Positions 59,560-64,000 of a stretch of 64,000 nucleotides of DNA are shown here, in pieces. Origin of the DNA: a virus; the IMG/VR virus record IMGVR_UViG_3300046779_001269, positions 112,025 to 176,024 of that record. One strand, 5' to 3'. The notes below the pieces were generated by a model that saw nothing but the letters and a program-made list of their open reading frames with translations, had not been told where the DNA came from and did not search any database. Both the position numbers and the translations under genes were made by a program. Every line of letters starts with the position of its first letter. Position 1 is the first letter of the stretch.

Positions 59560-59621
59560 ATTATACACGATTCCTAGGTTTTGGCAAACTAATACCAAAG
59601 TATTACAACCAATCCGGTCAA
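59560..59621 (-). promoter_or_regulatory. 16-bp-spacer early promoter with extended upstream module
   Basis: TTGACCGGATTGGTTGTAATACTTTGGTATTAGT-TTGCCA-16-TATAAT. Confidence 0.7.
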
Positions 59622-61171: not shown

Positions 61172-61220
61172 ATTATACCAGATTTACCTCGAAAGGCAAC
61201 CTGAATACTTTAGTAATCCA
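61172..61220 (-). promoter_or_regulatory. 16-bp-spacer early promoter with palindrome
   Basis: TGGATTACTAAAGTATTCAGG-TTGCCT-16-TATAAT. Confidence 0.7.
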
Positions 61221-61469: not shown

Positions 61470-61681
61470 TATACAACCTCCGTATTAATAATCTTGCCTG
61501 TTTTAACCGAATAGTATACATTTTCCAGTTTAGGGTAAACTGCACGAATTTGCATTACATCCGCATGGGTTTTGTAACGCTTTCGTGTGTATGTAATACA
61601 ATCCTTCTCATTTTTGAAATAACCAGTATACTCAATACTTACACCGTCAAAAATTAATTCAAATTGTTTCATTTGCTGCAT
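61469..61681 (-). CDS. hypothetical protein
   Basis: follows promoter at 61696. Confidence 0.55.
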   Translation of the reverse strand: MQQMKQFELIFDGVSIEYTGYFKNEKDCITYTRKRYKTHADVMQIRAVYPKLENVYYSVKTGKIINTEVV

Positions 61682-61695
61682 CCGTTAAAAATTAC

Positions 61696-61723
61696 ATTAT
61701 ACACAAAAACCGAATAATGGCAA
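61696..61723 (-). promoter_or_regulatory. promoter TTGCCA-16-TATAAT
   Basis: -35 at 61723-61718, -10 at 61701-61696. Confidence 0.7.
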
Positions 61724-61811
61724 TATAAGTCAATAGTATTCACAATATACACTGGAGAACTAAAGTTTACATTTCCAATATTAACCGTTTTTGTCGTTGT
61801 CATGCGTTAAG

Positions 61812-61860
61812 ATTATACACGGAAACCAGATTTTGGCAATATAATACCATAGTATTCCAT
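61812..61860 (-). promoter_or_regulatory. promoter TTGCCA-16-TATAAT with GAATACTATGGTATT palindrome
   Basis: -35 at 61839-61834, -10 at 61817-61812. Confidence 0.65.
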
Positions 61861-61881
61861 TGGTTTAATGGGTTATTATGC

Positions 61882-61949
61882 TGTGGATAACTTGTGGATA
61901 ACTCTAAAATTGTGAATAACTTTTATGCCTGTGGGTATGCTGTGGATAA
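61882..61949 (-). promoter_or_regulatory. cluster of co-oriented DnaA boxes
   Basis: plus-strand TGTGGATAA at 61882, 61893, 61941; TGTGAATAA at 61911; degenerate TGTGGGTAT at 61930 (reverse complement of TTATNCACA). Confidence 0.75.
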
Positions 61950-62195
61950 CTCGCACCATTGGTCGCAAAATAGGTGTAATGCTTTGGTATTAGTCCAACT
62001 TAGTCTCTGGGTCAGATGCCGGATTAATTCCAAAGTACACAAAAACCACGCAGGTTGAAAACAAAATGACTCTCAATGGTTCACGCCGAGAAACAAAAGT
62101 ACTCAGCCAGTGATTGATCCTGCAAACGGAAGTATTACTCCGATAAGTGTTAACCAGGGTCCGTGTGCACCCCAGTCCTGCTTTCGAATGGGTCA

Positions 62196-62293
62196 ATTAT
62201 ACACAAGCCCCAGTCCATGGCAAGCCAATAGTTGACCGGATTGGTTGTAATGAAAAAGTTTACAGTTGCCAAAACCTGCCGGTGTGTTATACT
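62196..62293. promoter_or_regulatory. back-to-back divergent 16-bp-spacer promoters
   Basis: minus: TTGCCA 62223-62218 with TATAAT 62201-62196; plus: TTGCCA 62266-62271 with TATACT 62288-62293. Confidence 0.7.
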
Positions 62294-62324
62294 ATATCCC
62301 ATGTTGAATTTGAAAGGACAAAAA

Positions 62325-62648
62325 ATGTTGAACCAGTTTGCTTCCCTCTCCCTCGCTGACCAAAAAGCAATGCTCGCTTCTCTCCGTGCGGTTCATGCTC
62401 AATCCCGTGCTGATTTTAAGGCCGGCAAGGCATTGCTCAAAGCTGACCGTGCTGCCGCCAAGGCTGCAAAGCAGGCTGCTGCTATCGCTAAGGCACAAGC
62501 CCGGTTGGATAAACTGCTCGCAAAGCAAGCAGCGCCTGTAGGTGTTAAGGCGTTGAAAGCAAACCGTAAACCAGGCAAGGTTGTGACATATGGTGCTGAA
62601 GATAATGCTATTGCTGGTGCCATCATGGCAAAAAAGCGTGGAGTGTAA
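62325..62648 (+). CDS. Ala/Lys-rich basic early protein
   Basis: SD AAAGGA; KADRAAAKAAKQAAAIAKAQARL. Confidence 0.7.
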   Translation: MLNQFASLSLADQKAMLASLRAVHAQSRADFKAGKALLKADRAAAKAAKQAAAIAKAQARLDKLLAKQAAPVGVKALKANRKPGKVVTYGAEDNAIAGAIMAKKRGV

Positions 62649-62649
62649 C

Positions 62650-62826
62650 ATGTTTTTGGTTTATGTAACGGAATACTATACACCGGCAGGTGGTGGTCGG
62701 CCGTATGCATCCGAACGGGTGGTTGCCACCATGCTGACGGAATTGGAGGCAAAATTGAAAGCTGCGGAGTATAACACCAGAGCGGTTTCTGGTCAATATT
62801 ACTCCATCCGTAAGGTGGAAGAATAA
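62650..62826 (+). CDS. hypothetical protein
   Basis: start MFLVYV after GGAG. Confidence 0.55.
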   Translation: MFLVYVTEYYTPAGGGRPYASERVVATMLTELEAKLKAAEYNTRAVSGQYYSIRKVEE

Positions 62827-62863
62827 AGTATTAGGTTGCCATTCCGACCGATTGTGGTATACT
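62825..62863 (+). promoter_or_regulatory. 16-bp-spacer early promoter
   Basis: AAAGTATTAGG-TTGCCA(62836)-16-TATACT(62858). Confidence 0.7.
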
Positions 62864-62946
62864 CCATTCCATAGTCAACAAAGCCAGAGGGATCGGATCC
62901 CCGAGGCGGTCCCTGTAAAATTGGGACCAACTAAAAAGGACATTTT

Positions 62947-63042
62947 ATGTTAGTAAAATTGGAAGCACTGGTTTTTTCTCTGGTGATGGTCGCCGCCGTG
63001 GTGGTGTTGGTGTTGGATGTAACCGTATGGAGAGCAATTTAA
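62947..63042 (+). CDS. 31-aa single-TM peptide
   Basis: not in ORF track; SD AAAGGA; MLVKLEALVFSLVMVAAVVVLVLDVTVWRAI*. Confidence 0.6.
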   Translation: MLVKLEALVFSLVMVAAVVVLVLDVTVWRAI

Positions 63043-63215
63043 TGACGGTAGCAGAATTAATTGCCATTCTCCAGACCATGCCGCAGGACGCACCGGTTGC
63101 GGTCAACGATAACCGCCGTGGTAACTTTTATGATACGGTGGACCAGGTGGACCACTTTGCGGAAGATTTTGCGGATGGTGATCCTGAGGTGGTGGTGCTG
63201 CAGGTTAATACTTGA
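63042..63215 (+). CDS. hypothetical protein
   Basis: MTVAELIAILQTMPQDAPV; TAATG coupling to the upstream peptide. Confidence 0.6.
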   Translation: MTVAELIAILQTMPQDAPVAVNDNRRGNFYDTVDQVDHFAEDFADGDPEVVVLQVNT

Positions 63216-63272
63216 CCGGTTTGCTGTAATACTTTCAGTATAGGTTGCCATTTTCACTGGTTCCTGTAGGAT
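63212..63272 (+). promoter_or_regulatory. 16-bp-spacer promoter with extended module, leaderless ATG at 63280
   Basis: TTGACCGGTTTGCTGTAATACTTTCAGTATAGG-TTGCCA-16-TAGGAT. Confidence 0.6.
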
Positions 63273-63279
63273 CCATTCC

Positions 63280-63540
63280 ATGATGAAAACAACCAAGATA
63301 TTCCTTGCCACCATGGCCATCGGCTTTGGTGCCATATGCACCGTTTCCTACAATGCAAAGGAAGCAACCACGGAATTGGTCGGTGAGCCATATGCCGCTT
63401 CGTTCTCCTATTGTGAGCAATTCACTGGCGTGGGTGGTAACCGCCGATGCCTTAAATATGGCATCGGCCAAGAGCTGCGCCAGGATACAATTAACCGTGG
63501 ACCCTTGTGGGATTATGAGGGCTACAAAATAGTCCGCTAA
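63280..63540 (+). CDS. exported protein with signal peptide
   Basis: MMKTTKIFLATMAIGFGAICT; one mature Cys pair. Confidence 0.55.
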   Translation: MMKTTKIFLATMAIGFGAICTVSYNAKEATTELVGEPYAASFSYCEQFTGVGGNRRCLKYGIGQELRQDTINRGPLWDYEGYKIVR

Positions 63541-63545
63541 GGCAC

Positions 63546-63593
63546 TGGAATACTAAAGTATTAGGTTGCCATTTTCAGGAATTCTGGTATAAT
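63546..63593 (+). promoter_or_regulatory. 16-bp-spacer promoter with perfect palindrome AATACT-AA-AGTATT
   Basis: TGGAATACTAAAGTATTAGG-TTGCCA(63566)-16-TATAAT(63588). Confidence 0.75.
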
Positions 63594-63624
63594 TCATTCC
63601 ATAGTAAATCAAAAAGGAATAGCA

Positions 63625-64000
63625 ATGACAGCAGCGCTCTACAATAAAGTTTCCAAAACCAGCAAGCTTGGTACCCTTTCATGGTCCCTGCAAGCTATTG
63701 AAACCTGTCCAGGCTCGGTTGGTGATGATGGTGAGCTGGTCGCTGCTTGCTCTGGTTGCTACGCTACCACTGGTTGCTACAATTTCCCAGATACAAAAAA
63801 AGTCCGTGCTGACAATAAAAAAGCATGGCAAGAAGCTGACTGGATCCAGGTGATGGTCAAAGCTTTGCAAAATCAAACCCACTTCCGTTGGTTTGATTCT
63901 GGTGACATGTACTCCTTGGCTCTCGCTGAGAAAATGCTTGCTGTTATGGCTGCTACGCCCCATGTAAAGCACTGGTTACCCACACGGATGTATAAATTCC
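63625..64000 (+). CDS. GP88-like Fe-S / radical-SAM-related protein (partial)
   Basis: not in ORF track; KTSKLG..SWSLQAIETCPGS.....AACSGCYA..G.Y...FRWFDSGD...HWLPTR. Confidence 0.7.
   Translation, partial: MTAALYNKVSKTSKLGTLSWSLQAIETCPGSVGDDGELVAACSGCYATTGCYNFPDTKKVRADNKKAWQEADWIQVMVKALQNQTHFRWFDSGDMYSLALAEKMLAVMAATPHVKHWLPTRMYKF

Follow-up and report, generated by a model that had tools for sequence, protein, structure and literature searches.

The DNA analysed here, which we call the window, is the last 64 kb (64,000 nucleotides) of a 176,024-bp IMG/VR virus record (IMGVR_UViG_3300046779_001269) from an uncultured lake phage. Read along the minus strand, one locus within it presents, in order, a divergent plus-strand promoter, a leftward promoter (P1), a segment of ~240 nt, a TGCGA repeat, an array of DnaA-type boxes, an AT-rich spacer, a second leftward promoter (P2) and a series of small early genes. 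All three promoters are of the early type. P1 (62223-62196, minus strand; TTGCCA-16-TATAAT, 11/12) precedes the conserved segment, is directed towards the boxes and is conserved in all relatives in the alignment; its rightward partner (62266-62293, plus strand; TTGCCA-16-TATACT) has a -35 hexamer that is kept in relatives, where it is read as ttggcaactgtaaac on the opposite strand. These back-to-back promoters lie ~250 nt from the array, so that its initial placement beside a divergence of early transcription holds. P2 (61839-61812, minus strand; again TTGCCA-16-TATAAT, 11/12) is separated from the last box by the AT-rich spacer (61881-61843, minus strand), which includes a promoter-upstream palindrome, AATACCATAGTATT (61843-61856). 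The first small ORF after P2 encodes 44 aa (61669-61803, minus strand) and begins with an ATG 8 nt past the TATAAT hexamer, a distance of 7-9 nt in most relatives; an ATG this close to the -10 hexamer suggests that the mRNA is leaderless. The neighbouring small proteins match no informative family.

The array itself (61882-61949, minus strand) is non-coding, with no convincing ORF over it, and holds five co-oriented DnaA-type boxes. Measured against the consensus TTATNCACA / TTATCCACA, three are perfect, one fits the relaxed form and one matches at 7/9 positions. The perfect boxes occupy 61882-61890, 61893-61901 and 61941-61949 and read TGTGGATAA on the plus strand, that is, TTATCCACA on the minus strand. 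Double box A (61930-61949, minus strand) joins the perfect box at 61941-61949 across a 2-nt gap to the degenerate 7/9 box at 61930-61938 (minus strand ATACCCACA, plus strand TGTGGGTAT), and double box B (61882-61901, minus strand) consists of two perfect copies, likewise 2 nt apart. The start-to-start spacing is thus 11 bp in both pairs, and between them sits a single box, TTATTCACA (61911-61919, minus strand; the plus strand reads TGTGAATAA). The sequence TATGCTGTGGATAACT is present twice (repeat families D1 and D2). Re-reading of the sequence confirmed the preliminary description of the array in its counts, starts, co-orientation, non-coding setting, 11-bp pairs and repeated TATGCTGTGGATAACT.

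Relaxed boxes as such are not enriched in this genome, which contains 31 as compared with 29.4 in simulated sequence, a comparison with expectation of the kind raised in the preliminary description; it is the clustering that is unusual. None of 300 third-order Markov genomes contained three or more boxes within 70 bp, whereas four relaxed boxes, three of them perfect, are observed here. Three of the five perfect boxes in the 176,024 bp lie in the array, as do both double boxes of the genome, defined by a gap of 2-3 nt and at most three mismatches in total, for which the simulated mean is 0.48 per genome. Outside the window, at genome 100-108 kb (100160-107737), eight co-oriented copies of TTATGCACA occur in a longer repeat unit (GCC TGTGCATAA ...GTTGCCA...) of a repetitive coding region. 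They were rejected as boxes because they are part of a repeated coding motif, and they are accidental matches to the relaxed DnaA consensus. Other viral contigs with the arrangement TTATCCACA-NN-TTATCCACA share at most two proteins with the phage and were set aside as uninformative on T4-like phages.

The phage is a distant T4-like one. Its nrdC.10 homologue matches 1304 phage records, mostly T4-type and including phages of enterobacteria, Vibrio, Acinetobacter and Aeromonas, at ~30% identity, with a best match of 44% to a Ralstonia phage. The T4-like assignment originally made is upheld by these matches. At the DNA level, the locus shows no similarity to any cultured phage.

The conserved non-coding segment (61951-62190, minus strand; ~240 nt) has a GC content of ~0.45 as compared with ~0.37 in its surroundings. 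Searches with an nhmmer profile locate a single copy in the genome and further copies in 13 distinct relatives, and the segment is kept more widely than the DnaA array. It closes with the direct repeat TGCGA-N7-TGCGA (61951-61967, minus strand), which directly abuts the first box and is present in relatives both with and without boxes. The best-conserved 3' block (CCAGAGACTAAGTTGGACTAATACCAAAG) contains the palindrome AATGCTTTGGTATT (61978-61991; inverted repeat I1), of the type AATAC-N4-GTATT. Palindromes of this type also lie upstream of early promoters at 59591-59604, 61204-61217, 61843-61856 (P2) and 63549-63562, with 11 matches at no more than one mismatch versus 3.8 expected, and two copies in inverted orientation (61978-61991 and 61843-61856) bracket the DnaA array. 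The element may be an operator or UP-like. Repeated TACTTTTGTTT-like motifs, similar to the upstream halves of the phage's early promoters, are found in the segment as well, and it occurs with two distinct 5' versions, CATTCGAAAGCAGGACTGGG... and CATAGCAATTGGTCGCC....

A coding gene under the segment was considered and rejected because no reading frame is conserved. An open frame of ~80 codons in the close L158-L161/L129 group is broken outside it: the window has a TGA there, L126 has gained 2 nt and L124 has lost 1 nt, and in L133 and L159 these conserved nucleotides fall into different frames. Assignment to a structured RNA family is not supported either: Rfam gave no match to the segment at E<=1, RNAalifold returned only 8 pairs at -0.3 kcal/mol, the MFE z-score for the window sequence was -1.4, and the long 3' hairpin is found only in the subclade with an 11-nt insertion. 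A search of 185,579 species genomes gave no bacterial homologue of the conserved 3' block. The first part of the P1 transcript contains a mini-ORF with an AGGA Shine-Dalgarno sequence (62150-62170, minus strand; V/M-H-T-D/E-P-G...). Among relatives it is 6 to 68 codons long and differs at the third position of several codons; it may encode a leader peptide, or may coincide by chance with a 5' hairpin.

Relatives of the locus were collected with the 170-aa neighbour protein, which yielded 11 viral contigs, and with the conserved 3' motif, which yielded more from viral and metagenome collections. Thirteen distinct relatives keep the segment. Arrays of 3-6 boxes occupy the same slot in 11 of them (L124, L126, L127, L128, L129, L133, L156 and L158-L161), and the two others are L131 (=L130) and L132 (=L151, L155); the array is therefore conserved at the same locus in relatives, as the first description of it had anticipated for a genuine element. 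Among array-bearing relatives the neighbour protein is 59-87% identical, and box number, spacers and some orientations vary. Nearly all boxes are paired in the same orientation, 2 nt apart (3 nt in one pair). Arrays like that of the window are found in L129, L158 and L161, with the single box TTATTCACA mutated in L161. Six boxes form three pairs with a gap of 2 in L124, and four boxes form two pairs (gaps 2 and 3) in L133, where the neighbour protein is only 59% identical. L126 has two perfect and two weak boxes, L156 two perfect and one weak, and L160 three boxes; L159 has one inverted box, a perfect one that replaces the single box TTATTCACA, and L127 and L128 each have two forward and two reverse boxes, mostly weak. 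Double box A is orthologous in all array-bearing relatives and always abuts the TGCGA repeat that ends the segment, and between 41 and 66 nt separate the last box from the -35 hexamer of P2.

The two remaining lineages keep the segment and have no boxes in the slot. In L131 (G003, 98% complete) the slot is empty, and a single perfect box is present in 166 kb. The slot of L132 lacks DnaA boxes; at L132:7352-7420, and equally in L151 and L155, it holds three ATTGCAC repeats with 10-bp spacing and a related AGTGCAT. We conclude from these lineages without boxes that the array is an optional addition to a module of wider conservation. Where the array is present, the comparison points to selection on the 9-mers, because perfect 9-mers persist while spacers, copy number and orientation change. 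The same observation bears on neutral slippage, in which the 11-bp unit TTATCCACAGC could simply have expanded: perfect 9-mers persist at only 59% protein identity while the spacers differ. We regard neutral slippage as quite unlikely, a grading that it shares with two further possibilities taken up below, the reading of the repeats by a phage protein or another host protein and the anchoring of incoming DNA through membrane-bound DnaA.

Several features suggest what the boxes bind. Host DnaA, the protein that initiates replication of the bacterial chromosome, is likely to be the ligand because neither a DnaA-type DNA-binding domain nor an enzyme for hydroxymethyl-cytosine is found in the phage: DnaA domain IV (PF08299) is not encoded, no phage DnaA-like binder was found, and there is no thymidylate-synthase-family enzyme. 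Given the absence of such a gene, the phage is probably without a gp42-type (T4-type) hydroxymethyl-cytosine pathway, and masking of the boxes by hydroxymethyl-C is unlikely. A search for glucosyltransferases was uninformative since the control gave no match. The form of the array is also that of DnaA sites. E. coli DnaA in vivo prefers box pairs 2 or 3 bp apart, altered spacing abolishes binding, and the double boxes often combine one strong with one weak box (PMC11317965); like the double boxes of the E. coli DnaA regulon, those described here are co-oriented pairs 2-3 bp apart and often strong plus weak. The initial designation as host-type DnaA boxes thus stands as far as clustering beyond chance, the match to the consensus and the conserved locus are concerned, whereas binding by DnaA itself is a prediction that we consider probable. 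A different reader of the repeats, from the phage or the host, would fit the further repeats in the slot region (TGCGA, AATAC-N4-GTATT and, in L132, ATTGCAC); a phage binder is opposed by the lack of a DnaA-like domain noted above.

A cultured T4-like cyanophage, S-PM2, provides a partial parallel. In a 440-bp non-coding gap of its genome, the stretch at NC_006820 19229-19611 (L164:1230-1612) has three cyanobacterial-type TTTTCCACA boxes crowded into 34 bp, followed by AT-rich DNA, 17-bp iterons and a 55-nt inverted repeat. Both clusters group host-type boxes tightly within the non-coding control DNA of a T4-like phage; they differ in the cyanobacterial TTTTCCACA spelling and the flanking elements of S-PM2, and the loci are not homologous. 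The cyanobacterial-type boxes of S-PM2 indicate that box spelling tracks the host. In the same gap the S-PM2 record annotates tRNA-Asn and tRNA-Leu, where ARAGORN finds no tRNA.

We tentatively propose that the locus carries a selected docking array for host DnaA, made of double boxes and joined to an early non-coding module, which would be accessory to a promoter/R-loop origin. The origin role is the weakest step of this proposal, and the reserve with which we put it forward covers the whole statement, including the link to an origin. Each double box would bind a DnaA dimer. Soon after injection, host RNA polymerase would fire P1 and transcribe the ~240-nt segment towards the boxes, and DnaA on the 4-5 sites would act in cis on the P1 unit, as an accessory part of a promoter/R-loop-type origin. 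Bound DnaA could halt the polymerase, keep the opened or hybrid region stable, or assist helicase loading. Arguing for an origin, an early promoter at the transcription divergence is predicted to drive untranslated RNA into an array of repeats. As far as sequence evidence goes, P1 (11/12) with its 240 downstream nt lacking a conserved frame agrees with one feature of T4-type origins, a promoter whose transcript enters the origin untranslated. In addition, the first double box keeps a fixed junction with the segment's end while the distance to P2 varies, and the surroundings of the S-PM2 cluster are origin-like. Arguing against it, the array is dispensable (L131, L132), T4 itself has no such cluster (three scattered boxes), and T4-type replication needs no DnaA. 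Further points against it are the missing DnaA-trios, fixed unwinding element and IHF site, a P1 transcript that lacks both G-rich skew and a convincing conserved fold, and a GC-skew minimum that mostly reflects a short island of plus-strand genes.

The closest comparison for the proposed origin is T4 oriE, in which an early promoter and iterons lie at a transcription divergence (PMC3016281, which also gives the placement of oriE, oriF and oriG). Like oriE, the locus has an early-mode promoter for host polymerase and adjacent short, evenly spaced direct repeats, may be situated where transcription switches strand, and is conserved in synteny among relatives (PMC3016281). Unlike the boxes described here, the T4 iterons are 12-nt phage-specific repeats without a known ligand; T4 has no DnaA-box cluster, and the origin activity of the present locus is predicted.

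A second comparison is with plasmids of the ColE1 type. In pBR322, a DnaA box lies just downstream of the primer RNA, and Seufert and Messer in 1987 and Parada and Marians in 1991 are said to have found that this box can direct helicase loading. The ColE1 origin is opened by an untranslated RNA (PMC5043065), and the phage locus resembles it in having a host-polymerase promoter that would give an untranslated RNA of a few hundred nt (PMC5043065). It differs in having 4-6 boxes as opposed to one, in lacking a predicted RNA I-type promoter, a conserved RNA fold and a G-rich hybrid-forming tract, and in that the phage has its own replisome. Indeed, no G-rich skew favouring R-loops is present in the P1 transcript, and no promoter-like site is found on the plus strand in 61951-62190, where an antisense RNA I would have to start. 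Membership in the ColE1-type replicons was rejected on this last ground.

We also looked for the accessory elements of oriC and datA. No run of at least three DnaA-trios (TAG/TAA or complementary) occurs within 170 nt in the window or in 10 relatives. There is no fixed AT-rich unwinding element, since the position of the lowest-GC 30-mer varies among relatives and often falls between boxes. The IHF site WATCARNNNNTTR is absent among the boxes, except for one that overlaps weak boxes in L127 and L128. In the absence of trios, a fixed unwinding element and an IHF site, a copy of either oriC or datA was rejected. The tandem, co-oriented consensus boxes with 2-nt gaps are like the basal unwinding system of bacterial oriC, which in contrast has DnaA-trio runs, an AT-rich element and a dnaA/dnaN context. 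As a cluster of high-affinity boxes outside the chromosomal origin the array is like datA; unlike datA, which needs its IHF site, it has none that is conserved, and it lies in a virulent-type phage, tied to an early promoter module. The array is thus akin to non-origin DnaA-box clusters and to promoter-primed phage origins, and is not a member of the oriC, datA or ColE1 classes.

These results bear on the possibility that the array is a sink or decoy, in which the high-affinity double boxes of multiplying phage genomes soak up DnaA and block new host rounds, as do datA and plasmid-borne clusters. An optional array of variable number and arrangement would fit a function in which only site number and affinity matter, and the double-box form maximises affinity. 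The cell's DnaA content, ~1000-2000 molecules in E. coli, is comparable to 4-6 sites per genome multiplied by a few hundred copies. A sink would not, however, explain why each genome has a single slot, invariably attached to the same module and directly adjoining its end, nor why the L132 lineage has non-DnaA repeats in that slot; the IHF site that datA requires is missing, and the benefit to a virulent phage is not clear. To judge by the ATTGCAC array of L132, what the slot requires may be an array of bound protein and not the titration of DnaA itself. We consider a sink improbable. The preliminary description had left the function between a sink, a first-round origin and promoter control; with the IHF site of datA and the oriC extras absent, a role in cis is favoured over a pure sink, because the array is an optional add-on to a module, is made of double boxes and abuts the segment.

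A role in cis need not involve replication. DnaA can block elongating polymerase, and at asnC it terminates transcription in an orientation-dependent manner. DnaA might therefore act here as a roadblock, insulator or regulator of transcription, either by stopping read-through from P1, which would form the 3' end of the non-coding RNA and protect P2 from occlusion, or by tuning P2 according to host DnaA status; DnaA is known as a transcription factor from its regulon (PMC11317965). Consistent with this, there is no intrinsic terminator between P1 and P2, 48 of the 53 boxes in the window and the 11 relatives are co-oriented with P1 transcription (counts from related sequences, which are not independent), the array is located at about -77 to -144 from the inferred P2 start, and the substitute repeats of L132 would suit any tightly bound protein. 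On the other side, P2 and its neighbours, all sigma-70 promoters close to consensus, should not require an activator, and the spacing from the last box to P2 differs by 25 nt among relatives, and the helical phase with it. Other tandem early promoters (P2 followed by 61723-61696) lack such an array, and relatives without one appear intact. A purely transcriptional role is in our view unlikely, though less so than a sink.

T5-like phages carry eight paired boxes in the injection-stop region (iss) (bioRxiv 10.1101/866236). For that region of T5, anchoring of incoming DNA by membrane-bound DnaA has been proposed, and the array described here might serve likewise. The array shares with the T5 iss its occurrence in a virulent phage and the conserved paired boxes in non-coding DNA, and the function there is also unproven (10.1101/866236). 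The T5 pairs differ in their 3-nt gaps and in their setting, large inverted repeats that are part of a terminal repeat whose place at the genome end is fixed; the boxes described here are mostly co-oriented, in a T4-type genome whose record contains no terminal repeat and whose circular permutation we assume from T4. T4-type genomes are circularly permuted, which leaves the array without a fixed position relative to the injected end (PMC3016281), and T5-like anchoring is unlikely if this genome is permuted as in T4.

T4-type phages are the textbook case of DnaA-independent replication, and in the literature searched we found no published description of DnaA boxes in T4-like phages. To our knowledge, T4-type origins outside T4 are essentially unmapped, and a conserved array of in-vivo form at an early non-coding unit is a concrete candidate for an origin or for a DnaA-sensing control point. 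The array suggests that DnaA is still docked by phages whose replication is believed to be independent of it, in which case T4-like phages would read or exploit the replication-initiation state of the host. A stronger version, which we find rather doubtful, is that a T4-like clade has wired host DnaA into a transcription-primed origin, in which the untranslated RNA would provide the primer or R-loop and DnaA dimers at its end would set or activate the start. This would tie the phage's first replication round to the initiation potential of the host. If arrays in T4-like cyanophages are likewise host-matched and independent, DnaA docking would be a general and overlooked feature of the group. 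If the docking is confirmed, the optional, fast-changing array would also be a natural experiment on the gain and loss of sites for a host factor.

The cumulative GC skew, brought up earlier as a possible pointer to an origin, has its minimum at 174 kb of the record, coincident with the array and the back-to-back promoters. The position agrees; the argument is weak, since the minimum mostly reflects a plus-strand island of only ~2 kb, and GC skew was rejected as proof of an origin because it is confounded by gene orientation. The island (window 62300-64000) has 47% GC as compared with ~38% elsewhere, and none of its small ORFs belongs to a family apart from the last one, which the end of the record truncates and which has matches to PF17338 (GP88) and phrog_1392. 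The island may be foreign DNA inserted next to the module.
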